Under the pieces are notes generated by a model. That model did not search any database, was not told the DNA's origin, and worked only from the letters and a program-made list of their open reading frames with translations. Both the position numbers and the translations under genes were made by a program. A stretch of 47,864 nt of DNA. Origin: Bdellovibrionota bacterium. GTDB taxonomy: Bacteria; Bdellovibrionota_C; UBA2361; OMII01. Where the stretch lies: the NCBI GenBank assembly GCA_044356215.1, contig JBIKWQ010000017.1:1-47864 (forward strand), in the 5' to 3' direction. Shown piece by piece: positions 12,590 to 35,363 of the stretch. Positions within the stretch are counted from its first letter, which is position 1. Every line of letters begins with the position of its first letter.

Positions 12590-12596
12590 TTAACCC

Positions 12597-16302: not shown

Positions 16303-18289
16303 CAACAAAATCTTTAATCTCTGAGCTGGAATCAAGTCTCCGCCCCCTGTGTGTAATAGCTCGCACGATAAATTTAGGTCGCGCTTTTGACTCGTCGAGG
16401 ATCTTGCCAACATACTCCCCAACTATAGCGGTAGCAAATAGCTGCAAACCACCAAAACCCAGGATCAACGACACTATAGTGGTTAAGCCACGAGGCACCG
16501 CCGGATCAAGCGCCCAAACGCAGAGATTAATCACTAGGGCTACTCCAGCCAGCGCCATTAAAGCCACTCCTCCTAGAAGCAAAAACTCAAGTGGCGCGTA
16601 GCTAAAACTAAAGATCCCTTTGCGAGCCCACCTGAAATTCTTCCGTAGATTATTCGTTGAAACTCCAAACATTCGCTCAGGCCTGTGGTAATCCACACCG
16701 GTCTGCTTAAATCCTACCCATGCCCGCAAGCCACGGAGAAACTGATCGGTTTCAGGAAGTCGCAGCATCTGTTCCACCACCCGACGATCAATTAATGAGA
16801 AATCGCCAGCGTCGAGAGGTATATTAATATCGGCCAAACCTCTAAAGACTCGATAAAAGGCCTTATAAGCAAAGCGCATAAATCTAGTCGCTTCACGCCG
16901 CACCCGACGTCCGTATACCACATCGAAACCATCTTCGCGCCACTTTTCAAAGAAAGCCGGAATAACCTCTGGGGGATCTTGCAGATCGCCATCTAGGAGC
17001 ACCACAGCATGTCCAGTTGATATCTTCATACCACTCAGAAACGCGTTCTGCGATCCAAAATTGCGCGAGTGTTCCACTACAACTACCCATGGATCTTTAG
17101 CCGCGATCTCCGCCGCGACCTGGGCCGTGTTATCTGGACTGCCATCATTAACGAAAATGATCTCATACTCGACCTTCATCGAGCTAAAAACCTTGCGCAG
17201 GCGATCGTACATAATCGGAATCGCTTGCCCATCCATATAGCACGCTATCACAGCTGAGATCCGAATCGGCTCAGCGTCTCCAAGAGAGGCGGCTACTCGT
17301 GGGACAAACCTCTCTGCCCGCGCCCATTCGGTATAACTTTTAAGGCCCTCCTCAAAGGGAACATTAGCCTTCCAGCCTATCTTTTCCAGAGCTTTATCGG
17401 CGTTCCCGTACCAGTCCTTCAAATCCCAGGAGCGATTAACCATGCTCCCCCAAGCAGGCTCGCCTTCCAGCGCGAAGATTGATTTAGCGACACTCGCCAC
17501 ATCGCGCATCGTCATCTTTTTCGTCGAGGCTATATTTATCGATTCGCCGCGCGCTGTAGACACTCCGCGTGTGGCCGCTAGTAAAGTGGCTCTGATTACA
17601 TCTGAGATATAAACAAAGTCACGTGATATATCAGGATCAACAAAAGGCGGATACCTCCCCTTTAAGCCGTGCTCTACAAGAGTTGGCAGCAACCTTTCAG
17701 GCTCTTCCCATGGCCCGAAAACTGAGTACAGCCTTAGGTTAACACACGGCAACTTTCTATGCTTCCCCCAGTGAGAGATCATGTAGGAGGCGGCAACCTT
17801 ACTGACCGCGTAGTGGCTATTCGGATCCAGTGACCAATCCTCCTCCGATCCGGCGCAATTGACCCCGTACTCCGACTGAGTTCCGGCGTGCACAAAAGCG
17901 GCTAGGCCTATCTCCTCGGCGACGGAGAGTACATTTAACAAGCCGAGCACATTAGTTTGATAAATAATCTCAACTTTAGTCTGCTTAGCGTATCCGCCAT
18001 ATGTGGCGAAAAATAGCACTGTTCTTGGCCTGTAAGCGCGAAAGACATCTCTTACTTCGGCGGCTCTATTTATGTCGCATTTTACAAGAGATATATCGCT
18101 TACATCAACCAATCGCCACGGCACAGAGGCGTCGTGGACGATCGCGTGAAGGTCGTCACGAACTTCCCTGATAGCTCTAACTAAATTTGCCCCTATAAAA
18201 CCGCCAGCGCCAAATACAAAAATCGGCCCCTCAAGATCCGCTACGAGATCAGCGATCGGTCGATCGTCAACAGCGTTAGTTGTCATCAT
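16274..18289 (-). CDS. Fusion: NAD-dependent epimerase/reductase plus polyprenyl-phosphate GT2 glycosyltransferase
   Basis: N-terminal GAGGFIG and YAVSK; C-terminal VNDGSPD, SRNFG, DGDLQDPP, FLRG and two TM segments (GtrB/ArnC-type). Confidence 0.9.
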   Translation of the reverse strand: MMTTNAVDDRPIADLVADLEGPIFVFGAGGFIGANLVRAIREVRDDLHAIVHDASVPWRLVDVSDISLVKCDINRAAEVRDVFRAYRPRTVLFFATYGGYAKQTKVEIIYQTNVLGLLNVLSVAEEIGLAAFVHAGTQSEYGVNCAGSEEDWSLDPNSHYAVSKVAASYMISHWGKHRKLPCVNLRLYSVFGPWEEPERLLPTLVEHGLKGRYPPFVDPDISRDFVYISDVIRATLLAATRGVSTARGESINIASTKKMTMRDVASVAKSIFALEGEPAWGSMVNRSWDLKDWYGNADKALEKIGWKANVPFEEGLKSYTEWARAERFVPRVAASLGDAEPIRISAVIACYMDGQAIPIMYDRLRKVFSSMKVEYEIIFVNDGSPDNTAQVAAEIAAKDPWVVVVEHSRNFGSQNAFLSGMKISTGHAVVLLDGDLQDPPEVIPAFFEKWREDGFDVVYGRRVRREATRFMRFAYKAFYRVFRGLADINIPLDAGDFSLIDRRVVEQMLRLPETDQFLRGLRAWVGFKQTGVDYHRPERMFGVSTNNLRKNFRWARKGIFSFSYAPLEFLLLGGVALMALAGVALVINLCVWALDPAVPRGLTTIVSLILGFGGLQLFATAIVGEYVGKILDESKARPKFIVRAITHRGRRLDSSSEIKDFVDERERTRGR

Positions 18290-19194
18290 TCTAGCGCCTC
18301 ACGAATTACACTTAATATTCTTTCTCCCGATAGCCCGCTCTCCTCTTGATGCCATTTCTGCGATCCGTAGCGACCCGAAGGATATCCCGCGGCGCAGAGT
18401 GAGATCATATTTAAGTTGGGAATTCCGATTAAGCACGGAGCGATACTTTCCGACATGCCGGACGAACGGTAGTGCTCCTCGATAGTTATCAATTTGCCTA
18501 TCGTTCCTATCGACCTCTTAAATACCTCATCAATCTCAATGATAGGAAACTCACCTACGGTCCAGAGCTCAACAGAATCCGGTGGTAGCTGTGGAAGTAT
18601 GGAGATAACATTGCTTACTATCGGGCCCATGGCGACTACTACAACTTTAGATCCTCTAATTACACGCCTAAAGGTCGACCAAGATGAGCGAGCTTCCACT
18701 TCCCCAAAATTATCTACAGACGACCCCAATCTAAGATAAGCTGGTCCACGTCGATCAAGCGCCGCGTTAAGACACTTATCTACGTCACTCGCGAATGCCG
18801 GCGTGTAGACACGCATATTAGGGAGAGCGCGCATGACCCCAACATCCTCAAGGGCGTGATGCGAACCACCCATGATGCCATACCCGTATCCTCCACCATT
18901 TCCCACAAGTGTCACAGGTAGGTTATGAAAACATAGGTCATTTCGGATCTGCTCAAATGGCCGCAGAGCGATAAAAGGCGCTATGCTGTAGACGATCGGA
19001 GCGAATCCACGAGCCGCCAATCCAGCCGCGACAGAGATCGTATTCTGCTCGGCTACTCCGGTGTTAATAAAACGATCTCCCAATACCTCACGGACCCGCT
19101 CGAACGCCATGTAACCCAGATCGCCAGATAGAAGAACCAGGTCTTCGCGGGACTTCGCGAGATCGATAATAGTAGCGGCAAATTCCCTTCGCAT
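18286..19194 (-). CDS. Transketolase C-terminal (pyrimidine-binding) subunit
   Basis: GDLG, FINTGVAEQN, EQIRND, HHALED, PAYLRLG, IEEH. Confidence 0.9.
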   Translation of the reverse strand: MRREFAATIIDLAKSREDLVLLSGDLGYMAFERVREVLGDRFINTGVAEQNTISVAAGLAARGFAPIVYSIAPFIALRPFEQIRNDLCFHNLPVTLVGNGGGYGYGIMGGSHHALEDVGVMRALPNMRVYTPAFASDVDKCLNAALDRRGPAYLRLGSSVDNFGEVEARSSWSTFRRVIRGSKVVVVAMGPIVSNVISILPQLPPDSVELWTVGEFPIIEIDEVFKRSIGTIGKLITIEEHYRSSGMSESIAPCLIGIPNLNMISLCAAGYPSGRYGSQKWHQEESGLSGERILSVIREALE

Positions 19195-19199
19195 GATCC

Positions 19200-20045
19200 T
19201 TAACTCTTCTCCTCACGGCCAGGCTGAATCATATCTCGTTCGCAAAATTCCAAAACACCCTGATACATCTCCGGTGTCATCGGAAGATAATGGGAGTCGA
19301 CCGTCCCTTCAATTTCCGGTAATCCACGCCCCTTTATAGTTTCGGCGATAATAGCGAGCGGGCCACTCCGGTTTTCTGAAACTTCCCTGTAGGCTCTCAG
19401 CAGTGAGGCAAAATCGTGTCCCGAGGCGTGACTCACCGCAACTCCGAAGGAACTTAGCTTATCCGCTATAGGCTCCATGTTAAGGACATCGGTAGTTTTT
19501 CCAAATCCTTGAAGCCCGTTACGATCGATAAAAAAGATTAGGTTCCTAAGGCCGTGATGCGCGGCGAACGCGAAAGACTCCCAGACACTCCCTTCATTTA
19601 ACTCACCATCACTTAGAACGCAAAAAACTCTTTCCGCTGGCAAATTCGGGGTAGAATTAAGTTTATTGCCGAGTGCCAGTCCCGCGCACAACCCCGGGCC
19701 GTGACCGAGACTACCGGTCGCGAAGGGCACACTCGGGATTCCTGATGGAGGAGGATGCACAGGAAAAATAGATCCATCCTTGTAGTACTGACTGATGAGT
19801 TCAGACTGGTTGATATCTCCCGCCGTAGCTAGAACTGAATATAACGCCGAAGCCGCGTGGCCCTTCGATAGCAAGATTACATCTCCAGGGCTCCAGCAGT
19901 AGAAGCGGATAAAAGTTAGGATCTCAACGCAAGACAACGCGCTTCCAACATGTCCAGACTTGGCCTCATAATGAAGCTTCAAAAGAAGCTTCTTAGCCGC
20001 TAAATTAGATTTCTTAAGAGACTCTACGACGGGAAAATGGTCCAT
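19200..20045 (-). CDS. Transketolase N-terminal (ThDP-binding) subunit
   Basis: SGHVGS, LSKGHA, TGSLGHG, and the ThDP motif SDGELNEG..DRN. Confidence 0.9.
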   Translation of the reverse strand: MDHFPVVESLKKSNLAAKKLLLKLHYEAKSGHVGSALSCVEILTFIRFYCWSPGDVILLSKGHAASALYSVLATAGDINQSELISQYYKDGSIFPVHPPPSGIPSVPFATGSLGHGPGLCAGLALGNKLNSTPNLPAERVFCVLSDGELNEGSVWESFAFAAHHGLRNLIFFIDRNGLQGFGKTTDVLNMEPIADKLSSFGVAVSHASGHDFASLLRAYREVSENRSGPLAIIAETIKGRGLPEIEGTVDSHYLPMTPEMYQGVLEFCERDMIQPGREEKS

Positions 20046-20113
20046 TTGCCTCTCATTACTGGCACACTACACCCGCCAGAGTGCTAAACTGTGTGCACAA
20101 AAGCAATCCCTGT

Positions 20114-20827
20114 TTAAGTCTCTCGATCCGCGCTAATAAAGATCGACTGTGACAACATCCGAGCGAATGGAATACGCTCGAGAATATCGCCCATAAGTAT
20201 AGATGGTTGCACAAGTATTTTAGGGATCCCTGGGACCAAGAAATCTCGGTATTCAACCTGAATATTCACAAAACCAACCTTCCCTAGGAGGCCCTCTATG
20301 AAAGACTTTGAGAAAGCCATCTCATCTGGCTCAAGGCGCGCTAGTTTCCTAAAAGGCGCGTAAGAGAAAATTAAGTATATATAGGGATTAAAGAGATTCG
20401 GCTCAAGAAAAACAATCCTACCTCCTGGTCTAAGTAGATCATGAATCGCCCTTAGGCAGTCCTCTAGCTGATAAAAAAGGTGGTGCAGGATCCCGTTACC
20501 AACCAGATAGTCAAATCTCTCGTGCTCTTCGATATGAATCTTCGTGAAATCGACAACATCAAAGGTAAGTTTCGGGTATCGGTAGTCCACTCGAGCTGTC
20601 TCTATGAAGGTTGGAGAACAGTCAATGCCTTTTACGAACATCCCGCTTTTCTTAGCGATGGAGTAGGCCATCGCTCCCGTTCCACACCCTATCTCTAGAA
20701 CGCGCTTTTCCGAGTCACTATCCATTCGGGAGAGCATATAGTCACATCGGCGCTCGTATCGCGCGCGTGTGCTAAAGCTGTCCATAAAGCCCTGATTGAA
20801 CCCGTTCTCATCTCTGATCGACGCCAT
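20114..20827 (-). CDS. Class I SAM-dependent methyltransferase
   Basis: VLEIGCGTG, GID, ILHH, LRPGG..EPN. Confidence 0.88.
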   Translation of the reverse strand: MASIRDENGFNQGFMDSFSTRARYERRCDYMLSRMDSDSEKRVLEIGCGTGAMAYSIAKKSGMFVKGIDCSPTFIETARVDYRYPKLTFDVVDFTKIHIEEHERFDYLVGNGILHHLFYQLEDCLRAIHDLLRPGGRIVFLEPNLFNPYIYLIFSYAPFRKLARLEPDEMAFSKSFIEGLLGKVGFVNIQVEYRDFLVPGIPKILVQPSILMGDILERIPFARMLSQSIFISADRET

Positions 20828-20837
20828 AACTAAAGCT

Positions 20838-21977
20838 CTACCCCACCACCTCCAAATTAGCCCGCGGCACCACAACGGTTTCTCCCGAAAGCTCCGCCAG
20901 CCGAACCAGCGCCACCCTAGCTAGCGCGCCAGTCGCTATCTCCTTAGGCTCCTTCGGCAGCTCAACTATCTCACCCTGCAGACCAAAATACGGGACCCTG
21001 ATGATTCGCACGCGACCTCCGACTCTAAGAGCACCCTGCATCACTCCGGACCCAGATAGATTGGCGGACTCCAATGAAGACGACCTCGTTGTAATTACCT
21101 CAGGTCTTAAAGCCCCAGCGCGAACTTGCGTGGCACCATTGATTGAGGCCGCGCATCCATGCGCTTGCTGTAGAAGCTTTAGAGCCCGCTCGTTCATCGG
21201 CAGCTCGCCAAACCCCTCCGTAATAATCAGTGTCATCGCTACCGGCTCATCACCAGTTAAAGCGATACCGATATCGTATCCAACGTAACTAGCTAAAGTT
21301 GTATCGTCTATTGATCCTGTGACAAAACCAACGGCACCTCGCTTAGCCGCGAGCTGCAACGCTGCTAGTGTTGGCGAGTGTCCTCCTATAAGGATCTCTC
21401 CTGCGCACGTCTCTGGAATATCAGCCTCAGTAATCTTATTACTGGCTTCAACATTAAGGAGTGAGATGACTCCATTCCGCTCACCACCCACTCCGAAGAT
21501 TCCTTGAACTAAGGTAGCATCAGCCTTTATTACCGCACCCCGGCCATCATCTACGCTTTCAACCTCTCCAGATATGTATGCTCTAACAGAGATCTTGTCT
21601 GCCGGAGCGCGAATCCCAATGTGACCCGTTGCTTGAGATATAAACTCTATTACACCACTAATAGGAGCCTGAGCCTCTGTCTTAAATAACCCCCACAAAC
21701 CACGCATCTGGGCGATTATATCTCCCCTCTCTACATTGTCTCCCGGCTTTACAACGATCTTCTCTATCGCATCTTCAGGGGTAATCCCTAAGATCTCTGG
21801 AATCTTGACGATCCTTAGCTCCCCCTCTCTAAGCGCCTCGGCGATCACTGTTTCTGGATTAACGTTCTCTCCAGGAGAAACCTTTACTGTGCCGGACCTT
21901 GTCGGCAGTTCTCGCCGCTTACGCACCGTTACACTTCCCGACACGCAGAGGCCTGGGGTCAGAGCACCGTTACTCAT
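20838..21977 (-). CDS. Uncharacterised protein with barrel-sandwich-hybrid-like repeats and a C-terminal KOW/SH3-like domain
   Basis: VKVSPGENV / VKPGDNVERGDIIA..APISGVI hybrid-motif pattern; LRVGGRVRIIRVPYFGLQGEI..VPRANLE at the C-terminus. Confidence 0.7.
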   Translation of the reverse strand: MSNGALTPGLCVSGSVTVRKRRELPTRSGTVKVSPGENVNPETVIAEALREGELRIVKIPEILGITPEDAIEKIVVKPGDNVERGDIIAQMRGLWGLFKTEAQAPISGVIEFISQATGHIGIRAPADKISVRAYISGEVESVDDGRGAVIKADATLVQGIFGVGGERNGVISLLNVEASNKITEADIPETCAGEILIGGHSPTLAALQLAAKRGAVGFVTGSIDDTTLASYVGYDIGIALTGDEPVAMTLIITEGFGELPMNERALKLLQQAHGCAASINGATQVRAGALRPEVITTRSSSLESANLSGSGVMQGALRVGGRVRIIRVPYFGLQGEIVELPKEPKEIATGALARVALVRLAELSGETVVVPRANLEVVG

Positions 21978-23824
21978 AAAACTCCCCCACTTATCTCAGA
22001 GACTCCGGACTCGTTAATAAGTCCTAATCTCTGATAAACTTCTCTCTGCGCCGAAATAGTAAAACTTTCAGGAGAGAACGGCCTGTTACGACCATCTACT
22101 ATCACACCCTCTGCTCCCAATTTAACGACCCGTTCTACGGTCTTGCCAGCTCCCCCGCCTAAATTAACCTGCCTGTGCCTCGGCACCACTTTTAGGCGCG
22201 CCTCTAGCGCCTCATCCTTCGATACGAAGCGATGCACATCCCCAGCTATCACTTCACCTAGCTTGGTATCATTAATAAATATATCGGCTAGAACCTCTCC
22301 TTTTTTAAAGCTCTTTGGATAAACAGGAACAACCGCGACACCTATATAAACAACGCAATCGCGCTCAAAGATCTCCTGAGCTGCCGCTGGGTGGACAGAT
22401 GAGAACACCCCTAGGTGAGGTAACATAAAGATCGAATCAACCGCGAGCTGCGTGACCCCTTCTAGCCCAAATCCATCAATCATCATTAACGCGGCTTGTG
22501 ATCTAAGCGGCGCGTGGCTAAGCACACCACCAGAACCGATTACAGTGTCGAGCGCCAACATGTTAACTAACTCATAGCGATCCGAACCCTGCTTAAATAC
22601 ATCCGCGATCCCGCGTTCAGCGGTTCGAGACTCTACTCCTATAGCTAATGAGCGGTGATGCTTAAGCGATAAACTCAACGCCTCGCGGCAAACTGCCTGC
22701 TCAAGCCAGAGATCCTCTAGGGTCTGAGGAATTGAGGTCGGCCTAATCATTTTGTTACGAAGTCTATCGCGCAGCTCGCTGTCTTTAATCTCAAATGGCA
22801 GCCAACGCCTAATTCCCGCGACGCCTGCTTCTACTAAGACATTCGCCACAGAGTAACTCATTCCTAAATTGGCGCTCACTGTGCGGTTTGATGTCTGCTT
22901 ACCACTTTGATCGCGAAATACCGAGAAAACATCGGTCGTCGCCCCGCCTATATCAACGCACAGAACACTCTGCCCTGTGCGCTGCGCGAATGTGTTTACC
23001 ATATCGCCAACGGCTGCCGGAGTTGGCATCACCGCCACCGGAGTCCAAGAGAGTAGCTTTGAGTAACCGGGCGAATGACTCATCACATGCGAGAGGAAAA
23101 GCTCATGAATCGCCTCTCTCGCTGGTCCGATATTCTCACGATCTAAAGCTGGTCTAACGTTATCAACAACTATCACTTGGGCTATCTTACTTAAGATATC
23201 TTTAACGTGGCTGGCCGCGTCCTTATTTCCAGCGTAGATAACTGGTAAAGTAAGGGTATCACCAAACCGCGGACGGGGCGCGGCTGCGACTAAGATCTCA
23301 GCCATCTCGACAACGTGAGTGGCCGATCCACCATCAATTCCACCTGTAATAAGCACAATATCTGGCTTTATATGACGGATCCTCTCAATTCTCTCGTGGT
23401 CCTCGCGCCCATCATCAGCCGACACCGCCTCCATTACTATGGCACCCGCGCCAAGCGCGGCCCTCTCAGCGGACTCGGTTGAAAAAGTACGCACGACTCC
23501 CGCGACTAACATCTGCAAGCCCCCACCGGCGGAGCTTGTTGAGAGATATAGATCAATCCCGCGGCTTGGATCGGCGTCTGTTATTATAAAGCTATCATCG
23601 TCATTTAGGATCGCGCGACCGCTAAGCTCCTGAACCTCTTTAAACGAATTGAGAGCCCCAACTGTGACATCGGCTACTGGCTCCTCAACTGTAGTCGGAG
23701 CCTCACCGCGACCGGTCTGCCTCCAACCATCTCTAGTTAATTCAAATAGCAGCGCCTTAGTTGTGGTAGAGCCACAATCAGTAACCAAGACTGTCTTTAG
23801 ACTCGCTGGATTAACTCGCATCAT
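21974..23824 (-). CDS. GlmL/MutL-like (glutamate mutase L family) ASKHA-fold ATPase
   Basis: Phosphate-1 DCGSTTTK, SSAGGGL, phosphate-2 DIGGATTDVFS, RTVSANLGMSYS, adenosine motif GSGGVL. Confidence 0.85.
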   Translation of the reverse strand: MMRVNPASLKTVLVTDCGSTTTKALLFELTRDGWRQTGRGEAPTTVEEPVADVTVGALNSFKEVQELSGRAILNDDDSFIITDADPSRGIDLYLSTSSAGGGLQMLVAGVVRTFSTESAERAALGAGAIVMEAVSADDGREDHERIERIRHIKPDIVLITGGIDGGSATHVVEMAEILVAAAPRPRFGDTLTLPVIYAGNKDAASHVKDILSKIAQVIVVDNVRPALDRENIGPAREAIHELFLSHVMSHSPGYSKLLSWTPVAVMPTPAAVGDMVNTFAQRTGQSVLCVDIGGATTDVFSVFRDQSGKQTSNRTVSANLGMSYSVANVLVEAGVAGIRRWLPFEIKDSELRDRLRNKMIRPTSIPQTLEDLWLEQAVCREALSLSLKHHRSLAIGVESRTAERGIADVFKQGSDRYELVNMLALDTVIGSGGVLSHAPLRSQAALMMIDGFGLEGVTQLAVDSIFMLPHLGVFSSVHPAAAQEIFERDCVVYIGVAVVPVYPKSFKKGEVLADIFINDTKLGEVIAGDVHRFVSKDEALEARLKVVPRHRQVNLGGGAGKTVERVVKLGAEGVIVDGRNRPFSPESFTISAQREVYQRLGLINESGVSEISGGVL

Positions 23825-24540
23825 CCGATCCCCACAGCGGAACCCACCGCGACGGCCCAGTCTCTAACGATAAACTGAATTCTCTCTACTAAAAGCGCCA
23901 AACGAGCCATAACCGTAGAGCCAAAAAACGCACCGAAACACACCATAAGAAGCGGCCTACCCCAAGTAGCGCTCCGACTCCGTAACGATCCCTCGCGACC
24001 AAAGGTAAAGAAGAAATAATTTAAAACCAGTAGCAAGATCGCTACAAAGAGGGCGTTATTAAGGCTCTCCCAGATAGCCAGAGCTCCTCCCGACTCAAAA
24101 ACCAGGAGTGGTTTGCAGCTACTAACTATCTGCGGGATAACCTCCGAGAAGAAGCCTCTGATCGCTAAAGCTCCACTAGCCCCCAGGGTAAAACCAATCA
24201 CTAGCTTAGCCATCCACGAGTGGCGTCTTGAATAAAGAGTGTAGTAAAGAAGCCCAAAACCGATCGGTATAAGGTATAGAAGATATAGCGGCTGGTAGCG
24301 CTCTGATGTTGTGCCGTCTGGATAATGGGTAATTGTTGAGCCAAGGAGCGGATCGATAATTTGCGGCCAGAAAAAATCACGCAACACTAGAACTGGTGTT
24401 AGCCCGGCGGCGATTCCGATAAAGAGATGCTCAAAAAAACGGTAAAATCCGTTCTCTTTTATTAAAAAGCTAAAGATCGCCAGGGTAGCGATCCCACCAA
24501 CCAGAGTTGATCCGCTGGTCCAGAGAGCTGCGCTATTCAT
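23821..24540 (-). CDS. Uncharacterised integral membrane protein (GlmL-like operon)
   Basis: ~6-7 TM segments; ENGFYRFFEHLFIG and FGAFFGSTVMARL; overlapping start/stop codons with neighbours. Confidence 0.8.
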   Translation of the reverse strand: MNSAALWTSGSTLVGGIATLAIFSFLIKENGFYRFFEHLFIGIAAGLTPVLVLRDFFWPQIIDPLLGSTITHYPDGTTSERYQPLYLLYLIPIGFGLLYYTLYSRRHSWMAKLVIGFTLGASGALAIRGFFSEVIPQIVSSCKPLLVFESGGALAIWESLNNALFVAILLLVLNYFFFTFGREGSLRSRSATWGRPLLMVCFGAFFGSTVMARLALLVERIQFIVRDWAVAVGSAVGIG

Positions 24541-25399
24541 GCCGCCCCCGCTTAAAACGATTTAACAGGGGGATCAGATTTCCAAGCGCTATCAGTAATA
24601 TAATCATAATATGCGCCGCGCTAAGAGCTGTATTGGTAACGAGTAGATCCCGATTATCACTAGCCGGAAAGTTCTTGCGCAAAACTTCCGAATACCAAGC
24701 TGCTCCCGCTATTCCCTCTAACAAACCATTCAACTGCCCGGAGTCCAGGAAAATATACGCTTCAGGGATAGTAATCGAAGTGCACCCGTGAACTAGGGTT
24801 GGACGATACCCCTTCTTCTGAAAGAACTGCACGACTGTGTCAAAAACACCAACTAACCCGGTTACCTCAGCCACTAACTTAACTCGCTCAACCCCACCGA
24901 TCTGAGCGAAACGGGGAAAATGCGCTATCGGCATACCAGTCACGTCACGACCGAGAAACTTTGCAATATCAGGGGCGCTCACTAGAGCCTGAATAAAGAT
25001 CGCCGCACCTGGCTTGTATCCGGCGTTAATCCAATCTTCGCCGTATCTCCATGTCTGCCCCGGATGCTCACGCTCAAGGCGCTGGGCGACCTCTTGCGGT
25101 ACGCGAGTTAGGAAACGCTCTGACTGCTGGTATTGAGACAGGAGTATCACTGGAACTCGTCGCCTTAATAAGTGCTCGATGATCACCACTGCTTGTGGCT
25201 CATTCTCGGCGATCGTATTAGGCCCGAAATCAAGCCACACCATAGCGACCTCACCGGGGGCGAATGTGACTCCTTGCATCACATCATACATCCTCTCGGC
25301 GGATACCATTCGCGATGGGGCTCGTGATATCCCCAAGAAAACTGGAGCGCCAACCGCTAAGATCATCAGCAGATAAATTAACCTTCGGGGGATACTCAC
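24533..25399 (-). CDS. Uncharacterised membrane-anchored protein (TM-soluble-TM)
   Basis: N- and C-terminal TM segments; YGEDWINAGYKPG, SGQLNGLLEGIAGAAWY; ATGA overlap. Confidence 0.8.
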   Translation of the reverse strand: MSIPRRLIYLLMILAVGAPVFLGISRAPSRMVSAERMYDVMQGVTFAPGEVAMVWLDFGPNTIAENEPQAVVIIEHLLRRRVPVILLSQYQQSERFLTRVPQEVAQRLEREHPGQTWRYGEDWINAGYKPGAAIFIQALVSAPDIAKFLGRDVTGMPIAHFPRFAQIGGVERVKLVAEVTGLVGVFDTVVQFFQKKGYRPTLVHGCTSITIPEAYIFLDSGQLNGLLEGIAGAAWYSEVLRKNFPASDNRDLLVTNTALSAAHIMIILLIALGNLIPLLNRFKRGRHE

Positions 25400-26508
25400 T
25401 TCTTATCTCCCCCACTCTTGGCCGATTCGATCGACAACCACATCCGGATCGCCAACATCAATCCAGCGACCCCCGCGCCTAAACGAATCGCTCTAAAAGC
25501 CGCGCTATTAGGCACCTCTAGAAGCCACTGTCTAATCGACGGCATATCCTCGTAAATAACCTTTCCAAAAGAGATCTGACCCAACATTACAACAAGTGCT
25601 GCCGCCATCATCAAACCCGACTCAAATGTTTGAATTCTAAAGGCGCGGTAAGCGGCCGCCGCTATATAGACACCTAAGAGAGCGAACATACTCGCCCCTA
25701 GATGATTAAAGAGCCCGTCGTAAAGGAAATCATAGAGCCTTGAGCTAAACTTAGTCCCGCTCTCTTTTCGCTTCAAGATAGCGTAAGATGAGGCGACCTT
25801 AGCCGCTCGCTGAGATACTTGAGCTAACGCTGATTCATTAGTCGCGTCTAGATTATTCCATTGATTTCCTGATAGCGCGCTTACAGATTCACGCAGGCCT
25901 AACAGCTCTTGCTCACTATCTCTAATTAGCTGTGTGGTAGCTAAATCACCTTGCGCTATCTCAATGATACGGGACTCTTCCGCTTTAATCTTCTCGATAA
26001 TACGAAGCGAATAAGATTCAAGGGCGCTTACCCTTTTACTTAACTCAGGCACCCCAGTTGGAGAGAAGCTCCGTTCGTTTCCCGCGCCTAACTTGGCGTC
26101 TTCTACGATCCGTGCGGCGAAATCACCGATTATCTGCACGTCTCGAATCTTGCTCGCGCTGTGTCGCGTCATCATCCAGTGCGCTAACGTTGAGCCTATC
26201 ATTACTAATAGCCCCAGCAACAAAGCGGCGCTGTACTGCCAGCCTCGTTTCAAGAAGATAAACTTCGACCCGTGAGCCATTAGGATATTTATCACGCCCA
26301 ATCCGATCGCCATCGAGCTAACAGCGATAAAGCCATTTGAGATAGCCTCGTGCGCCGACTTAATTTTAGTTCCCTCGATAATGCTCTCAGGAGTTATGAA
26401 ATAAAGAAAAAAGTAGATACCACCAAGAAATGTGATAACTCTTAAAGCCAGCGCACGAGTATCCCTTCTCACTCCTCCGCCGCTGAGACCTTGATTACGC
26501 TCCTCCAT
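25396..26508 (-). CDS. Uncharacterised integral membrane protein with a helical extracytoplasmic insert
   Basis: 3 TM + ~150-aa helical loop + 3 TM; ASMFALLGVYIAAAAYRAFR, PNSAAFRAI. Confidence 0.8.
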   Translation of the reverse strand: MEERNQGLSGGGVRRDTRALALRVITFLGGIYFFLYFITPESIIEGTKIKSAHEAISNGFIAVSSMAIGLGVINILMAHGSKFIFLKRGWQYSAALLLGLLVMIGSTLAHWMMTRHSASKIRDVQIIGDFAARIVEDAKLGAGNERSFSPTGVPELSKRVSALESYSLRIIEKIKAEESRIIEIAQGDLATTQLIRDSEQELLGLRESVSALSGNQWNNLDATNESALAQVSQRAAKVASSYAILKRKESGTKFSSRLYDFLYDGLFNHLGASMFALLGVYIAAAAYRAFRIQTFESGLMMAAALVVMLGQISFGKVIYEDMPSIRQWLLEVPNSAAFRAIRLGAGVAGLMLAIRMWLSIESAKSGGDKK

Positions 26509-26512
26509 CGCT

Positions 26513-27319
26513 CTATTTGCCCTCCCAACCTAAAGACAAAAGATTAAGGGGTTTAAACCAAGAGAGCTCTGGGAACCAATTTGAAATGGTCGCTGAGATC
26601 ACTCCGACACATATAATCGCTACGATGATTAACTTGAAACGATCCTGCGCCGCTACTGTACCAACCTGAATCGGATCCCGACTAAGATAAGCCGAGGCTC
26701 CAAAAAGCTCCTCACCAATTAAGGTGTAATCACAGGTACAGATAAAGAAAGCGACCTGCTCCGGACTAGCGCTAGCCGCAACCTGTCGTGCTCCAACCTG
26801 TTGTCCTGCCTCGCTTAACACGAGGGATTCAGCGGCGAACGATCCGAACAAAAAAGCCGCTCCTGGCTTCTCGCGGTGCAGGAGCCCCATATACCCCGAA
26901 GCAAACGCGAACTGCTCACTTGAGAGAAACATAATACTCTCAGGATCAAATAATGATGAACGCCCCGCTTCGTTATACGCATCACGTACACTATCCTCAA
27001 CTACAGCCATCGCTTCTGGAGAATACTGTGGAACAAGTAATTTAAGTTTATATTGCGCGACTCTCTTCGCTATCGATCGCAGAACGCCTAAGCACGCATA
27101 GAGAACCGGACCGACATCGGTTAAAGCTGTGGTGAATGAGACAGCGCGCCCCTGCTCGGCGCATCTACCGACTGCGCCTTCTATAGCGTCGACCCCCGGA
27201 ATACGACGGATATTGTGCTCGAATCCTTTATTAATCCGCTTAAACTCACGGAAGAGAAGCAAAAAAGCGGCTACTAGAAGAGCTATTACCGCGGGCGTGG
27301 CGTGTTCTAATCCGTTCAT
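26513..27319 (-). CDS. DUF6754-like membrane protein
   Basis: IRRIPGVDAIEGAVGR..E.GR, QFAFA, AESLVLSEAG, FFICTCDYTLIGEELFGASAYLS; family recognised from memory. Confidence 0.75.
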   Translation of the reverse strand: MNGLEHATPAVIALLVAAFLLLFREFKRINKGFEHNIRRIPGVDAIEGAVGRCAEQGRAVSFTTALTDVGPVLYACLGVLRSIAKRVAQYKLKLLVPQYSPEAMAVVEDSVRDAYNEAGRSSLFDPESIMFLSSEQFAFASGYMGLLHREKPGAAFLFGSFAAESLVLSEAGQQVGARQVAASASPEQVAFFICTCDYTLIGEELFGASAYLSRDPIQVGTVAAQDRFKLIIVAIICVGVISATISNWFPELSWFKPLNLLSLGWEGK

Positions 27320-27624
27320 GCCGCAGGCGCCTCCTCTTTCTGGGCGCCACCACGTTTAAGCTCATCGCGACTACTAGCATTCTCAAGTAGCACAATAAGC
27401 TCCTCTACTCGTTCACTTGAACTTAAGAGCTTGCCGATTACAGGGACTAGCTCCGCTCCAAAGAGTGCTCGTTGGACCCCTTCGGTCGCTCCGTACAACT
27501 CTCTAGCAACACCGGTTAGGGGCTTAAAGCACTCAAGGAAAAAGATCGCGGGCGCTACCATGCGGCGCCTTACAAGAATTTGGGCGACATCCTCAAGGCT
27601 TTGAATTGGCTCGGTTTTTAACAT
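27316..27624 (-). CDS. Small hypothetical protein heading the GlmL-like operon
   Basis: 102-aa ORF with APAIFFLECFKPL..ERVEELIVLLE; ATGA overlap with the DUF6754-like gene. Confidence 0.7.
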   Translation of the reverse strand: MLKTEPIQSLEDVAQILVRRRMVAPAIFFLECFKPLTGVARELYGATEGVQRALFGAELVPVIGKLLSSSERVEELIVLLENASSRDELKRGGAQKEEAPAA

Positions 27625-27682
27625 GGCTAGCGGCTAGGGTAGTAGAATTTAGGGCGGAGGAAAAGTGATTATAGGCAGTGAC

Positions 27683-27834
27683 CGGGGCGCCGCAGTTATT
27701 TTTCAACACAGAGGACGCAGAGGACACAGAGAACGGCTATTTTATGGGCAATTATGGGGCTTTCTCTATGTCCTCTGCGGTCAAAAATTTGACTTATTAT
27801 CGCAGCAGTTTACCAAAAACACTGCGACGCCCTG
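27683..27834 (+). mobile_element. ~160-bp MITE, copy 1
   Basis: TIRs CGGGGCGCCGCAGT / ACTGCGACGCCCTG; internal CAGAGGAC-repeat hairpin; aligns with copies at 31944, 32608 and 38821. Confidence 0.85.
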
Positions 27835-28008
27835 GGAAGCGCCAGGGATGCGGTCCCGAAAAATTCAAGATCCTTTGCTTTTTTGAGCACCTGCAACATT
27901 TTTATCTGCCTTAACTGCTTTCCTTAAGATAATCCGCTCACCCCCTGAAACCAAACCGCGTTAGAGGCATCAGAAGATCTGTAGGATTTATTCTTAGTAG
28001 GTTTTATT

Positions 28009-30576
28009 GTGCGCACGAAACGACCTGAGCTGGTCCTTAGCTCTCTAACTGAGCATATTAACGACGCAGTTCGATCTATTGAGGCTCTATGCCTAGCGGT
28101 CTCGTGCTCATCAGCTCTTCTCATCCCCGCTCAAAATGTATCAGCCGCGCCTGCAAATAATATTCAGACCTACCCAGGTGAATACGTAATTACTAAGAGA
28201 ACAAGTAACACCGGCCCAATTGGATTGTCAGTCAGTCAGTTATCGGACAACAGCTCAAGTGCTACGAATAATTTAGAACAGCTCGGTAAATATGGAAGAG
28301 TAGTTAAACGGATTAACCGCGGAACAGATTTAGTTGTAGCGAGCGATCTTACGAATAAAGTCACACCCGGATCCCCTCAGGTAGCTGCTCTCTCAAATAC
28401 CGAACCCGACTCCGACTTCTGCAAGAACTTAATCTCGGCTGGCTTAGCTGAAACATGCACACCAAACTATAAACTTTCAATCCTGCAAACATCTGAGAGA
28501 GATCCACTGAGCTCACTTCTTTGGGGATTAGGCGATAGTGCAGGGATCGCCGCTGAGAGCGGCTGGGGGATCTCACAAGGCTCACGTCAGGTCGTGGTTG
28601 CCGTAATCGATACCGGTATCGACTACACTCATGAGGATCTCGCGAACAATATATGGACTAATCCATTTGAGCGCCCTGGAAATGGCTTAGATGATGATGG
28701 GAACGGGGTTATCGATGATGTACACGGAGCGAGGTTTATCTCTGCGGGAATCACCGGAGATCCTTTAGATGATAATCAACACGGAACTCACGTCGCTGGA
28801 ACGATCGGAGCTGTTCACGGAAACGGTCTAGGAGTTAGGGGGGTAGCTCCGTTTGTCACACTTTTGCCGATTAAATTCCTTGATGGCAATGGCTCAGGCC
28901 GATTATCTGACGCTATCGCGGCGATCGATTACATGATCGATCTAAAGATCCGCCTCGGTGTTAACATCAAGATAGCCAATAATTCGTGGGGTGGCGGAGG
29001 CTATTCACCCGCTCTTGAGGCCGCGATTCGCCGCGCTTACGACGCGGGAATTATCTTCGTCGCCGCCGCTGGAAACAGCGGAACCGACAACGACTCGAGC
29101 CCAACCTTCCCAGCGAGCTACGACCTGCCAAATATAATCTCGGTCGCCGCGATCGATCAGAATCAGAATTTAGCTCCATTCTCAAACTACGGGGCCTACT
29201 CTGTTGATATAGCCGCTCCTGGGGTATCGATCATAAGCACACTCCCCGGCCAGCGATACGGGGCGCTGTCGGGAACATCGATGGCTACTCCGCACGTCTC
29301 TGGGGCGCTTGCTCTACTCTTTGCTTTCCAAGATGGACTCTCGGTTGAGAGCGCTATCACCAGAACACTTGAGACCGGACGAGACTCAGCGACTCTAGCC
29401 AGCCCCGATGGATCGATAGCTTATGTGAAATCAAAGCGGATCTTAAATGTCCCTCGACTTCTTAGAAACGAGAGAACCCCAGTTAGCGATCCCAACGCTA
29501 GCCTTCCTGCGTGTGGGTATGACTTTAATCTCTCCAACACAACCGACTCTCCTGGTCTTGATCAAGCCGCGGATCTGACAAACCCAGTAAACCAAGCTGA
29601 TGAGGGTGATATTCGCGAGATAGCGCTTCCCTTTGATTTCCCATTCTTTCAAACTAGCACTAGATCGATCTTTATCTCGCCAAACGGGCTCGTTTACTTA
29701 TCGCCTCCGCGTGGTTCTGATTATCAGATAGCGTCGCGTGCCCCAAATTTCTCAATCGCGGCTTTCCAGAGCGATCTAACTCCGCGGAACGCTAGACAGG
29801 GGGCTAGGGTTTACGTAGCCGAAGACAGGACTGTGATCTATTGGAGCTCTGAGATGTACGCATACCCAGGGCTCGGACCTGTCACCGCCAGGTTGACTCT
29901 CTTCCGGAATGGGACGATCCGATCAACCGTTAGCTTTGAGAATTCAAACGATCCGGATCGATTGGCCTCACTAGCCTTAGGAAACGGTCTTATATCTCCA
30001 GCTTCACCACCTCAGGGATTAATCGGGGCTAGCGCCGGAACCACTAAACAATCAAGCACACTTGATATCGGTGATGCTCAAAGAAAGTTAGCCTCTAAAG
30101 GGGGATCGATCTTAAATTTAGCTGTTACTATGGTGCCAAACTGCTTCTCAGTACCAACACCTGTGCCAAATATTCCGGTCCCACCTGCCGCCTCCCCGGC
30201 ACCACAACCTCCTACACCGCAAGATCCACCAACAAGCCCCCCTCCCACTGACAGCGGAAGCTTGGCTAAGGTATCCTCTATTCGTATGCGCTACGCGACA
30301 AGGGAGCGAAACATCTCTGTAAGGCTACGCGGCTCCGGAACAGGAGCAGTAGTTCTGCGCGGCGCAGTAAATGGCACGGTCTGCCCGCAGGTAATCACAT
30401 CTGATTTATCGCAGGGCATTGGGGCTCTTAGACTCTCCTCTCTGCCCGCCAGCGCCAGACGCATTGAGGTGTTTAACGAAGATACAGGAGATGCTGTAAG
30501 CATCCCTTCTAGCCGGCGCGGACGCGTTAGAAGATTATCACAGCAGCGACTCTGTTCGGGGGTGTTTGGTTTGTAA
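28009..30576 (+). CDS. Secreted S8 subtilisin-like serine peptidase with C-terminal extension
   Basis: Catalytic triad VIDTG, HGTHVAG, GTSMATPHV; oxyanion AAAGN; Pro-rich linker near the C-terminus; start uncertain. Confidence 0.92.
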   Translation: MRTKRPELVLSSLTEHINDAVRSIEALCLAVSCSSALLIPAQNVSAAPANNIQTYPGEYVITKRTSNTGPIGLSVSQLSDNSSSATNNLEQLGKYGRVVKRINRGTDLVVASDLTNKVTPGSPQVAALSNTEPDSDFCKNLISAGLAETCTPNYKLSILQTSERDPLSSLLWGLGDSAGIAAESGWGISQGSRQVVVAVIDTGIDYTHEDLANNIWTNPFERPGNGLDDDGNGVIDDVHGARFISAGITGDPLDDNQHGTHVAGTIGAVHGNGLGVRGVAPFVTLLPIKFLDGNGSGRLSDAIAAIDYMIDLKIRLGVNIKIANNSWGGGGYSPALEAAIRRAYDAGIIFVAAAGNSGTDNDSSPTFPASYDLPNIISVAAIDQNQNLAPFSNYGAYSVDIAAPGVSIISTLPGQRYGALSGTSMATPHVSGALALLFAFQDGLSVESAITRTLETGRDSATLASPDGSIAYVKSKRILNVPRLLRNERTPVSDPNASLPACGYDFNLSNTTDSPGLDQAADLTNPVNQADEGDIREIALPFDFPFFQTSTRSIFISPNGLVYLSPPRGSDYQIASRAPNFSIAAFQSDLTPRNARQGARVYVAEDRTVIYWSSEMYAYPGLGPVTARLTLFRNGTIRSTVSFENSNDPDRLASLALGNGLISPASPPQGLIGASAGTTKQSSTLDIGDAQRKLASKGGSILNLAVTMVPNCFSVPTPVPNIPVPPAASPAPQPPTPQDPPTSPPPTDSGSLAKVSSIRMRYATRERNISVRLRGSGTGAVVLRGAVNGTVCPQVITSDLSQGIGALRLSSLPASARRIEVFNEDTGDAVSIPSSRRGRVRRLSQQRLCSGVFGL

Positions 30577-30615
30577 TGAATTGGGTATGGGCGCTGATGC
30601 GCGCCTGTTATTTAG

Positions 30616-31196
30616 GGAAAAGCGGCAAAACCTCGCTTACGCGATGTTTTGTTAGAAACGGCGCGTCCGCGCCGTTTAGGTAGATGCTGCTGTTACCAGA
30701 AGCTGATACTATCTGTGGCATGACACAGAGAACATTCGCTTAAACTTAACTGGGCATCGAAGAGTAAGACTGCACGCAGAGAGCGGTTTCTAGCTGATAT
30801 GGAACGGGTAGTTCCATGGAAAGAGCTTGAGGAAGTAGTTAGTCCTGTTGCTCCAAGTATGAAACCTGGACAGTTGGGAGGACGGCCAGCGTACCCGCTT
30901 AGCGTCATGCTGCGGATATACCTTTGTCAGACTTGGTATAATCTCTCAGAACTAAGGTTCGCTACAGGGGAATTAAAAAGAACTATCTGCACTTGAACAT
31001 CCTCTGCATGCTATCCAGTCTTTACTTGAAGAGACGGGTTCTGCTCGCGTCATGGGAGCAGTGTATCTAAAGCGGCCATTTTCCCGCAAATTACATAGCG
31101 GTGGCGGGTCAAACATCGCAATTTCAGATCCTAGACGGCGCGATTAGCGCCGTTACCGAGCAAAAACTCGCGTAAGCGAGGTTTTGCCTCGTCTCC
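30616..31196 (+). mobile_element. Internally deleted IS5-subgroup element (581 bp)
   Basis: ~65-bp imperfect TIRs (30616-30680 / 31130-31196) with a perfect core GGCAAAACCTCGCTTACGCGA; TTAG duplicated at 30612-30615 and 31197-31200; transposase remnants inside. Confidence 0.9.
30720..31070 (+). pseudogene. IS5 transposase remnant (N-terminus joined to C-terminus, core deleted)
   Basis: MTQRTFA, a frameshift near 30741, then KTARRERFLADMERVVPW..GGRPAYPLSVMLRIY..WYNLS. From 30951, in another frame, TKVRYRGIKKN..LSSLYLKRRVLL..* (stop 31068-31070). Confidence 0.9.
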
Positions 31197-31350
31197 TTAG
31201 AGTTACTTCGCTAAAAGAATTCTAGAAACTTAGACTTTAAAGACCGACTACGCTTCGTATCACGCTCTACAGTTATGAAAACATTCACTCTGCGAGAGGC
31301 CAATGAGATTAGATCAAAGGGCTGGGTGTCTTGAGATAAAGAGTTAAAAG

Positions 31351-31860: not shown

Positions 31861-31943
31861 CACCCACCCCCAAATAAAAATACCCAAAACTCTGTTCGAC
31901 TATACTCCAGCCATCACCTTAGTCAAACGCTATCGCGACAAAC

Positions 31944-33580: not shown

Positions 33581-34414
33581 CTACTTCCCTTTCCTAGCCC
33601 GCGCTAACTCCTCTTCCAGTAAAGAGATATGCTCGCCCTTTGTCTCTTCTATCAATCTTAGTTTATCTTCTAGCGCCCCCTTAGCTCCTGAGATCTTTTT
33701 TATCGCTTGATTCTCTGTGGCGCTTAGTGCCGTCGACAGCTCACTTAACTGCTCAACTAACTCGGCCTCACGTTTTTTCGCGTTTAATGGCTGCGGTCTA
33801 GCGCGCATCTGACTGACTCTCCGGTCTAGATCACTTTGAGCTGTTGAGACCCTTTTTAACCTAGCCTTAATCTCTCCTAACTCATCTTCTGCATCCACAA
33901 TCTTAGACACCATCGCTATATTGTCCGCGTCCTGTTGCAGAGATCTGATCCGAGATCCTTGAGCTGTTATCTCACTTTGCAGCTGTCGCAAAATTCCCCG
34001 CCTCTCAACAAACCTATCACGTAGCTCCGCGGACGATAGCAAGGTCGATGGTGATATCTCATCGCCGTTAATCTCTTTGAAAGCTGATTTAACCTCACCA
34101 TTTGTACCGAGCACCATTAATAACGCGCTGAGTCGTTCCCCCGCCTGAGGCGCCTCTGGTAATCGTCCGATACACACAAGCTCCTGATCGTCGTCCTTAG
34201 ATGGGATCCAGGTTGCCGCTACCGCGCGCGGAGGCTTATCTCCACTTGCCGCGACCATGATTACCTGTTCCACCTCCCCTGAAAACGCAACCTTGTCAGC
34301 TATAGTAACCTGCCTCGCATCTTGGGCGTTACCACTTCCTGCCGTAAGTGATGCGACGATAAATGTCGCTAAAATATTTAGGAGGGCTGATCTACATCTA
34401 CTCCAACTGACCAT
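33581..34414 (-). CDS. Exported hypothetical protein with long C-terminal coiled coil
   Basis: Signal peptide-like N-terminus; heptad-rich C-terminal half. Confidence 0.7.
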   Translation of the reverse strand: MVSWSRCRSALLNILATFIVASLTAGSGNAQDARQVTIADKVAFSGEVEQVIMVAASGDKPPRAVAATWIPSKDDDQELVCIGRLPEAPQAGERLSALLMVLGTNGEVKSAFKEINGDEISPSTLLSSAELRDRFVERRGILRQLQSEITAQGSRIRSLQQDADNIAMVSKIVDAEDELGEIKARLKRVSTAQSDLDRRVSQMRARPQPLNAKKREAELVEQLSELSTALSATENQAIKKISGAKGALEDKLRLIEETKGEHISLLEEELARARKGK

Positions 34415-35363
34415 AGAACTCCTCCTCTTTGTCAGTCTCCGTCTCGCGTTTTAACGATGCGGGAGTCGAGGTCCTCTCGTCTCTATCTTTTGGTTCAGCG
34501 CGATCCTTGGCGATCGCGTTCTTTAAAGCTTTTACCCGCTCCGCTCTCTCAAGAGCTTGATCAAATCCGATCGATGTCTCTGGCTCTAGGAGCTTTAAAG
34601 TTAACTCGATCCATCGCGACTCACGTTGAATCGTCTCCCTGCTTAAGAAAACTAAGCGCCCCTCCTGCGAGATCCTCTGCGATAGATCAAAATCCCTTAG
34701 TTCGCGATCTAAGCGCCGCTGACGCTCACGCAGATCGTCACGCGCGGAATCGATCTCAGAGTCCGCGCGGCCAAGCCGCACATCAGCGGTTTTACGAAGG
34801 GTACTACCGTCGGAGACATAGCTGTGAAGATCATCGATCGACTGCCGCTGCTCATCAACCTGCTTTTGGGCTGTCTGAATCTCAGACTCGATCGATGAAA
34901 GCTCTTGCCAGATCGAGAACCAGCGACTTAGCTCTGTCTCGGTTCCTTGATCTATTCCAGAGATTCGCGCCTTTTCTAGGGTCCAAGAGCCCGACTCGCG
35001 CGATATTGGGTCATCATAGTCACCGGCATATCTTCCCTCTCCAGTTTCAGATCCCGTCAATCTTAGGCGAACATCACTCTGCCCGATTACTAAAGGCTGT
35101 CTAGTTTTGCCAAATGGATCGATCGGCGCTATGCGCTGAGCCGACACCCGCAGATCCCCAATCGCGACAGCTAGGCTCTGTTCATTAGCTCGTTTCGCCA
35201 CGATGAAAGGGAAGACACGTTTAGGTGAGTCACTCTTTAAAGTTCCGACATATACCCCGGGAGCTAGGTCTGGAAACGCCGCGGTGTACCATCGCGCGAG
35301 CAAGAACACCGAGCCGCCAAGAAGAGCCAATAGAGCCAGTGCGATAAAGATAAAACGTCGCAT
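34398..35363 (-). CDS. Membrane-anchored hypothetical coiled-coil protein
   Basis: N-terminal TM segment, beta-rich domain, then E/R/Q-rich coiled coil; overlaps the next gene. Confidence 0.7.
   Translation of the reverse strand: MRRFIFIALALLALLGGSVFLLARWYTAAFPDLAPGVYVGTLKSDSPKRVFPFIVAKRANEQSLAVAIGDLRVSAQRIAPIDPFGKTRQPLVIGQSDVRLRLTGSETGEGRYAGDYDDPISRESGSWTLEKARISGIDQGTETELSRWFSIWQELSSIESEIQTAQKQVDEQRQSIDDLHSYVSDGSTLRKTADVRLGRADSEIDSARDDLRERQRRLDRELRDFDLSQRISQEGRLVFLSRETIQRESRWIELTLKLLEPETSIGFDQALERAERVKALKNAIAKDRAEPKDRDERTSTPASLKRETETDKEEEFYGQLE

Follow-up and report, generated by a model that had tools for sequence, protein, structure and literature searches.

We analysed a stretch of 47,864 nucleotides (nt; the window), which is a whole contig of a 3.24-Mb Bdellovibrionota genome that is 96.5% complete. 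Seven open reading frames (ORFs) on its minus strand, called g1 to g7 in reading order, occupy positions 20838-27624, and each is single-copy in its own genome. They encode a GlmL-like ATPase of the actin/Hsp70-type ASKHA fold, two companions and four membrane proteins. The system is real, conserved and, as far as searched, undescribed; it is made of old folds, matches no known kind of machine and may represent an ATP-powered membrane transporter of a new kind. The genes (lengths in amino acids, aa; TM, transmembrane) are as follows.

g1, 27316-27624, minus strand, 102 aa: no Pfam family
g2, 26513-27319, minus strand, 268 aa: DUF6754 (PF20539, E 3e-77)
g3, 25396-26508, minus strand, 370 aa: six-TM protein, no Pfam family
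g4, 24533-25399, minus strand, 288 aa: TM helix, alpha/beta domain and TM helix, no Pfam family
g5, 23821-24540, minus strand, 239 aa: five to six TM helices, no Pfam family
g6, 21974-23824, minus strand, 616 aa: ASKHA ATPase (PF13941, MutL/GlmL, E 7e-121)
g7, 20838-21977, minus strand, 379 aa: hybrid motif, swiveling and KOW domains; RnfC_N and Biotin_lipoyl matches below cut-off only

Gene anatomy and the two modules

Successive genes from g1 to g7 are separated by -4, +4, -4, -8, -4 and -4 nt. An earlier note on this DNA had described seven co-oriented genes with overlapping or 4-nt-spaced junctions, and we recovered every ORF at that span and on the minus strand. Pfam bore out its reading of g2 as DUF6754-like and of g6 as MutL/GlmL-type (PF20539 and PF13941), the ASKHA motifs that it saw intact in the 616-aa ATPase proved 96-100% conserved across 56 aligned homologues, and a structure model of g7 matched both domain types, hybrid motif and KOW, that it had assigned to the last gene. 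Its description of g1 as a soluble protein is less clear, the product being helical-looking and moderately hydrophobic. The cluster carries no assigned function in Pfam, NCBIfam, PADLOC (which matched none of the seven genes), PDB sequence searches or the literature searched, as the same note had supposed; in that literature, whose scope stopped short of subscription papers and supplements, no paper names DUF6754 and no description of the cluster was found. No plasmid match to g2 was found, no RNA run covering the region was listed (which has no bearing on expression), and a promoter scan returned 12 sites against 16.5 in shuffled sequences, that is, fewer than in shuffles.

The clustering of g1 to g7 is far beyond chance, because the same genes stay together across many phyla; gene-neighbourhood analysis of these phyla confirmed the co-occurrence in other genomes that had been predicted for them. 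The closest GTDB loci (73-79% identity) are mostly labelled Bdellovibrionota, and the gene set recurs in about ten other phyla, with relatives in records labelled WOR-3, Zixibacteria, Eisenbacteria, Latescibacterota, Poribacteria, Gemmatimonadota, Planctomycetota, Armatimonadota and Bacillota, and related proteins named for Cloacimonadota, Chloroflexota, Eremiobacterota and Coatesbacteria. All seven families shared one locus in 58 of 94 loci (six duplicates having been dropped), many of the others being cut by contig ends. Conservation within the home phylum is established: DUF6754 was encoded in 117 of 124 genomes and 72 of the 73 high-quality ones (0/14 control genomes), and g7 in all 78 genomes at least 90% complete, nearly always in single copy. 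Carriers in the phylum include genomes of 1.2-1.8 Mb, and g6 was present in 41/41 genomes searched of its own order. The system is near-universal in one uncultured phylum and reaches five copies per genome in records labelled WOR-3 and Zixibacteria, and its function is therefore probably central.

The set is two modules, a soluble one (g1, g6 and g7) and a membrane cassette (g2 to g5). The earlier note had proposed a single seven-gene machine; the gene linkage stands, and the single unit is better replaced by these separable parts. Directly after g6 we found g7 in 79 of 90 loci and in 16/16 further Bacillota loci; in the five of the 11 exceptions that were checked, g7 lay elsewhere in the genome. 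The two are fused into one protein in 54 of 150 representatives. The small gene g1 adjoins g6 in some lineages and g2 in others, is duplicated together with g6-g7 in loci L085, L096 and L178, and is fused to g6 in one of the 150 representatives (P0031). On the membrane side, the order g2-g3-g4-g5 was kept in 89 of the 92 DUF6754 copies with at least 2.6 kb of downstream sequence. DUF6754 was also encoded, in one to five copies, by 38 of the 41 genomes behind the loci chosen for this ATPase among the 80 listed. One soluble module can go with as many as five cassettes: one g6 and one g7 accompany five DUF6754 copies in each of two genomes (G149, G156), four in G145 and three in G155, and G153 has four DUF6754 copies with two of each. 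Mirror-tree correlations, which are descriptive and confounded by shared descent, were 0.91-0.97 within the cassette, 0.94 for g6-g7 and 0.76-0.89 between the modules.

Within the soluble module, g6 contains the motifs DCGSTTTK (16-23), DIGGATTD (291-298) and GSGG (430-433), from which we infer that it hydrolyses ATP. It is strongly conserved, with many invariant polar residues; the window copy shares 50-54% identity with 18 copies from distant phyla, compared with 22-46% for the other genes tested. Structure models were made for g2 and g7, each with a predicted local distance difference test (pLDDT) score of 92, and they establish the domain folds of both. The g7 model comprises barrel-sandwich hybrid motifs (53-126), a swiveling beta/beta/alpha domain (154-298) and a KOW/SH3-like domain (316-379). 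Its structural matches (VIA) were enzyme I of the phosphotransferase system (PTS; 2wqd, Z 9.6, root-mean-square deviation (rmsd) 2.6 over 107), NqrA (4u9o, Z 8.4, rmsd 2.0 over 65) and the Spt5 KOW domain (5ohq, Z 9.5, rmsd 1.2 over 52). In g7 neither His nor Cys is conserved (at most 39% His and 38% Cys at any alignment column), nor is any Lys of the lipoyl or biotin type, and g7 therefore belongs to no known type of phospho, lipoyl or biotin carrier. The conserved residues of g1 are E31, P35, P49 and E81. Its best 19-residue hydropathy has a median of 1.42 and exceeds 1.6 in 9 of 43 homologues, and the protein is probably an amphipathic adaptor or membrane tether. Two divergent g6-g7 pairs stand in tandem in L085, L096, L178 and L179, and one g7 in each of L085 and L096 carries an extra hybrid repeat; the tandem pairs suggest that the ATPase may act as a dimer, here turned heterodimeric.

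The most conserved membrane subunit is g2, in which a Rossmann-like alpha/beta domain (about 37-214) lies between two TM helices. Its model matched generic Rossmann structures only (best Z 10.7, rmsd 3.3 over 146 residues), and a Cys-Asp pair, C196-D197, is near-invariant. Beside TM1, Lys plus Arg residues average 4.6 after the helix versus 0.6 before it, which predicts that the domain is cytoplasmic. Long g2 homologues carry additional Fn3 or PQQ-like propeller regions N-terminal to TM1; among the 120 best of them, 118 have DUF6754 at the C-terminus behind variable outer regions, and 96 of these start with a hydrophobic signal. The same architecture appears mirrored in g4, with a TM helix, an alpha/beta domain predicted to lie outside and a second TM helix; here Lys plus Arg averages 3.2 after TM2 versus 0.9 before it, and the bias is weaker at TM1. 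A g4-like domain occurs in the outer region of one DUF6754 protein (P0221, E 1.5e-24; a single case). Profiles of g2 and g4 match in register and weakly (E 0.005-0.015), and g4 may be a paralogue of g2 in inverted orientation. No long fused form of g4 turned up when such forms were sought, a negative that carries little weight. A match of g4 to PDB 8h2i was rejected as a sum of weak repeat matches.

The two remaining cassette proteins are g3 and g5. Charge bias places the N-terminus of g3 inside and that of g5 outside. The six-TM g3, for which no Pfam, NCBIfam or PDB sequence match was found, carries between TM3 and TM4 an insert of about 140 aa that is lineage-specific and predicted to lie outside. 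In g5, with its five to six TM helices, T209, R213 and R220 are invariant in or beside the last helix, an invariant Arg falling within that helix; g5 has no family or solved relative, and the best 120 of its 1415 homologues have no Pfam family. Paralogy of g3 and g5 was tried as well and was not significant (E 0.08-0.5). No alignment column of either protein reaches more than 50% Cys. PDB sequence searches with g2, g3, g5 and g6 gave nothing useful; in the ESM Atlas, g4 matched only clusters of hypothetical proteins and g5 gave no usable named match, an outcome that speaks neither for novelty nor for absence. Taken together, the charge bias suggests two subunit pairs, g2/g4 and g3/g5, whose members have opposite orientations in the membrane.

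Separation from mutase-linked GlmL

By family assignment g6 is a GlmL relative, scoring 404 bits against PF13941 (cut-off 27) and falling below the cut-offs of the narrower NCBIfam models (NF040745, 222 of 475 bits; NF040744, 207 of 600; TIGR01319, 173 of 204). It shares with GlmL/MutL and Or-4 an ASKHA core of about 490 residues together with the phosphate-1, phosphate-2 and adenosine motifs, and mutase-linked GlmL is 30% identical to it across 433 columns (HH probability 100). Unlike GlmL/MutL, g6 is longer by a C-terminal extension of about 120 aa, and its linked genes are g7 and DUF6754 instead of glmS/glmE or oraE. MutL/GlmL is termed a chaperone for glutamate mutase reactivation in PMC4682846, with a diol dehydratase paper cited for the statement.

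The partners of such a chaperone were sought in the window, in the genome and in its relatives. The earlier note had seen no B12-binding mutase subunit in the window, and this held: the sole DxHxxG match in a long ORF falls in the pilus ATPase and outside any B12 domain, and neither glmS/glmE nor oraS/oraE is among the window neighbours of g6. Over its cut-off, glmE (PF06368) was found in none of 61 genomes of the order, that is, neither in the 96.5%-complete genome itself nor in 60 relatives; nor did it exceed the cut-off in any of the 41 genomes behind the chosen loci. The few weak matches scored below the cut-off, and three of three control genomes were positive at about 770-790 bits. The aminomutase barrel (PF09043) was found in none of three phylum genomes, including this one (control 2/2), and ethanolamine ammonia-lyase (PF06751) in none of five, again including this one, with E. 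coli as positive control. A search of five genomes for a client dehydratase (PF02286) found none, and no control gave a match either. The genome does encode B12 enzymes elsewhere, namely two large subunits of methylmalonyl-CoA mutase and a protein of 1242 aa, the size of a methionine synthase, with a B12 domain. Methylmalonyl-CoA mutase is encoded in 67 of 78 phylum genomes; of the 11 that lack it, all keep g7 and 10 keep DUF6754. Mimicry of the GlmS B12 domain by the g6 insert was considered and not supported (E 0.29).

The two forms of PF13941 also differ in company. Short forms (about 460 aa) have glmS/glmE or oraE neighbours in six Pfam-checked loci (L142, L155, L160, L164, L167 and L140), and in the 30 best Bacillota loci of the short, mutase-linked form g7 adjoined it in none. 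In trees (FastTree with 121 rows, IQ-TREE with 42 chosen rows; unrooted, with groups sampled by best score and intermediates unsampled), a single branch with support 100 divided the short from the long forms, and the g6 of the window nested among the long forms with support 96-99. A separate phylogenetic placement, which the earlier note had anticipated, was thus obtained as far as the branch apart from mutase-linked GlmL and Or-4 is concerned; the approximately unbiased (AU) test was less decisive and did not reject an attachment of g6 beside the short forms (p 0.078). On these comparisons of genes and genomes, the g6 system is not a glutamate-mutase helper. Many proteins of metagenome-assembled genomes (MAGs) annotated as "glutamate mutase L" or "methylaspartate mutase" are accordingly misannotated, which can cause false claims of glutamate fermentation.

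Among the short-form loci, GlmL and GlmE stand directly after a MurD-like ligase, in place of glmS, at L155:44-4382 and L160:24-4273, and L161 and L162 have an ORF of equal size at the ligase position (a likeness of size only). This arrangement possibly links glutamate mutase to cell-wall peptide synthesis.

Neighbouring genes and repeats

Two genes of the window are possible lineage-specific accessories whose membership in the system is uncertain.

33581..34414, minus strand, 277 aa: signal-peptide-like N-terminus, long helical C-terminus, no Pfam family
34398..35363, minus strand, 321 aa: N-terminal TM anchor, beta-rich domain, long helical region

They lie directly upstream of g1 in many relatives of the order and 5.9 kb away here. 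Of 35 loci chosen, two had less than 1.2 kb upstream; in 22 of the other 33, the informative ones, the 321-aa gene lay on the same strand as g2 and no more than 3.6 kb upstream of it. Other orders of the class often have this gene tens of kb off or on another contig, and it is therefore no core part. The C-terminal region of a Ser/Thr protein kinase encoded elsewhere in the genome (L189:943-2703, contig C9) resembles the N-terminal domain of the 321-aa protein (E 4e-8).

The block that separates g1 from these usual upstream genes (27625-33580) is probably an insertion. It encodes a subtilisin-family protease (28009-30576) and an AbiEi-type antitoxin (32733-33317), and contains three of the four window copies of a dispersed palindromic repeat of about 150 bp (27685-27835, 31946-32105, 32610-32771 and 38823-38946). 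Folding of the first copy gives -32.5 kcal/mol (z -6.8), and blastn of 27651-27930 gave 263 matches in the genome, inverted self-matches included. The repeat looks like a repetitive extragenic palindrome (REP) or an element of the miniature inverted-repeat transposable element (MITE) type.

Downstream of g7 lies a co-oriented glycan cluster (10763-20875) with a methyltransferase, a split transketolase, a fused epimerase-glycosyltransferase and three large proteins that have little or no family match; an ATG of the methyltransferase, at 20827, begins 10 nt past the g7 stop. The methyltransferase, transketolase and glycosyltransferase were considered as parts of the system and rejected, no homologue (at least 30% identity, 120 aa) being present in any fetched locus.

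In other lineages different neighbours recur. A conserved membrane protein of about 145 aa, which has no Pfam family, stands just before g1 or near the cassette in L083 (9228-9665) and 15 other loci, all outside the home phylum; it was not found in the genome analysed here and is likely an eighth component in those lineages. A nucleotidyltransferase and an APH-family kinase directly precede one cassette (L126:4810-6833), a pair that presumably recalls AmgK/MurU of peptidoglycan recycling. Glycine cleavage genes lie near the system in 15 loci outside the phylum (Pfam-checked in five), and the other neighbours there include peptide-binding proteins of ATP-binding cassette (ABC) systems, TldD/PmbA, M14, M20 and S58 peptidases and asparaginase II, with peptidase C26 in five Bacillota loci. 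At Rfam gathering scores, 27 loci and the window showed no riboswitch preceding genes of the system (the matches were two FMN on the opposite strand, one SAM downstream and four tRNAs), and Rfam therefore gives no clue to a cargo.

A putative importer, its rivals and its precedents

We tentatively read the system as an ATP-driven membrane importer in which a shared ASKHA ATPase module serves several cassettes, and give this reading, in which contact between the modules, flux and cargo are putative, a probability of about 0.4. The cassette g2-g3-g4-g5 would be a translocation unit with inverted symmetry, its path formed by g3 and g5 as two six-helix subunits of opposite orientation. Substrate would be captured by the outer domain of g4, with g2 holding the related domain on the inner side. 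ATP would be bound and hydrolysed by g6-g7, probably tethered by g1, and the nucleotide cycle would make the swiveling domain of g7 grip and release the cytoplasmic domain of g2, resetting the carrier. One soluble module could in this manner serve several cassettes with different outer domains. Judged, with no null model, by the neighbours outside the phylum, which often handle peptides or amino acids, the cargo would most likely be peptides, amino acids or cell-wall fragments.

Several observations weigh against this reading. No part resembles a known transporter by sequence in Pfam, NCBIfam or PDB, and the similarities that would underlie inverted symmetry are weak or not significant (E 0.005-0.018 for g2-g4; 0.08-0.5 for g3-g5). 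Many neighbours are housekeeping genes. One genome of the home order (G031, locus L190; 1.9 Mb, 93% complete) keeps g6-g7 and has neither g2 nor g5, three MAGs of unknown completeness also have neither gene, g1-g5 were found in 0 of 22 metagenome loci with fused g6-g7 (up to 8 kb a side), and the cassette is split in genome G140. The presence of g7 in 78/78 genomes, nearly always in single copy, suits an essential envelope function no less than it does nutrient uptake.

Such a function is the main rival, which we regard as doubtful: an essential envelope machine that would use the ATPase to export, flip or assemble a lipid, a lipid-linked glycan or a protein by way of g2-g5, the work on the outer face falling to g4 and to the outer domains of g2 and g3. 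Near-universal, single-copy occurrence in the phylum, even in genomes of 1.2-1.8 Mb, speaks for it, as do outer Fn3 or PQQ-like propeller domains typical of envelope proteins, an invariant membrane Arg that could bind lipid phosphate, and the two anchored long-helix proteins that precede the system in its own order. It sits poorly with as many as five dispersed cassettes per genome, which suggest several cargoes, with downstream glycan genes that have no homologue in any fetched locus, and with the occurrence of the system in lineages with differing envelopes. Variable outer domains on a constant core would suit transmembrane signalling, the outer domains sensing, g2 switching the ATPase and the KOW-bearing g7 acting on transcription or translation; the KOW/SH3-like and hybrid motifs of g7 are like those of NusG and RNA polymerase, and a few long homologues have helix-turn-helix domains (P0052, P0091). 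We think this unlikely: about sixteen TM helices exceed the requirements of a receptor, folds of the KOW and hybrid types are common and were matched at middling Z, and no regulator recurs beside the cluster.

Three further explanations start from g6 itself. Were it a kinase or an oxoprolinase-like enzyme that modifies the solute, with g7 as a mobile carrier, transport would be coupled to chemistry in a PTS-like manner. The weak matches of 54 of 56 aligned g6 sequences to Hydantoinase_A (best E 1e-6), the high conservation and many invariant polar residues of g6, the match of the g7 swiveling domain to the enzyme I phosphohistidine domain and the near-invariant C196-D197 of g2 all point this way; the absence of a conserved His, Cys or carrier Lys in g7, and the description of GlmL, the closest named relative, as a chaperone and not a kinase, make it quite improbable. 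A cobalamin role, with g6 stripping B12 from g2 in a corrinoid importer or reactivating an enzyme such as methylmalonyl-CoA mutase, draws on the full-length homology of g6 to GlmL, on the presence of that mutase in this genome and in 67/78 of the phylum, and on weak matches of 5 of 56 g6 sequences to PF02310 (best E 0.009). Genomes without the mutase nevertheless keep g7 (11/11) and DUF6754 (10/11), the GlmS profile has no match to g2, g4 or the g6 insert (E 0.07-0.29), and no B12 enzyme recurs among the neighbours checked, so that we hold this role to be very improbable. Least credible is an ordinary glutamate-mutase or aminomutase reactivase adjoining unrelated membrane genes by chance. The database names of homologues ("glutamate mutase L") would favour it; the searches for glmE (0/61 and 0/41 genomes) and for the aminomutase barrel (0/3), with their positive controls, the linkage of g6 conserved across phyla and the 0/30 short-form loci with an adjoining g7 speak against it.

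If the importer reading is true, the system represents a class of primary active transporter powered by an actin/Hsp70-fold ATPase through a chaperone-like grip-and-release cycle, related to the cycle that repairs B12 enzymes, and GlmL would be a derived, stripped-down offshoot of an older machine. To our knowledge, no ATP-driven solute pump runs on an ASKHA ATPase, the known ones depending on ABC, P-type or rotary ATPases. Compact Bacillota copies (L169, L181) make the function directly testable.

Each known system that we compared shares a feature with this one and departs from it elsewhere. The barrel-sandwich hybrid domain of NqrA and RnfC is like that of g7, and NqrD/E form an oppositely oriented six-helix pair that g3 and g5 recall. 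Unlike Rnf/Nqr, g3 and g5 have no conserved Cys, and no flavin or Fe-S family match was found. PTS enzyme I has in its phosphohistidine domain the same swiveling beta/beta/alpha fold as g7; unlike it, g7 has no conserved His, and the seven proteins gave no PTS family match. In group II energy-coupling factor (ECF) transporters, a shared energising module serves several dispersed membrane units. These and the ABC importers with a shared ATPase are like the four genomes in which one g6-g7 accompanies three to five DUF6754 copies; the g6 ATPase differs from theirs in being of the ASKHA rather than the P-loop fold, and the seven proteins gave no ABC_tran, ABC or ECF Pfam match. A parallel to the soluble module is the alpha subunit of the DdrA/GdrA reactivases, which combines an Hsp70-like ATPase and a swiveling domain, the same pair of domain types as g6 and g7. 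The dehydratase reactivase was not among the matches listed for the g7 model, and, unlike DdrA/GdrA, g7 adds hybrid and KOW domains and has a membrane cassette as its genetic partner. The swiveling domain of the glycerol dehydratase reactivase binds a partner subunit and releases it on ATP hydrolysis (PMC7674605). DdrA/GdrA thereby offers a mechanical precedent for g6-g7, put forward as a likeness of domain types and not as evidence of homology.

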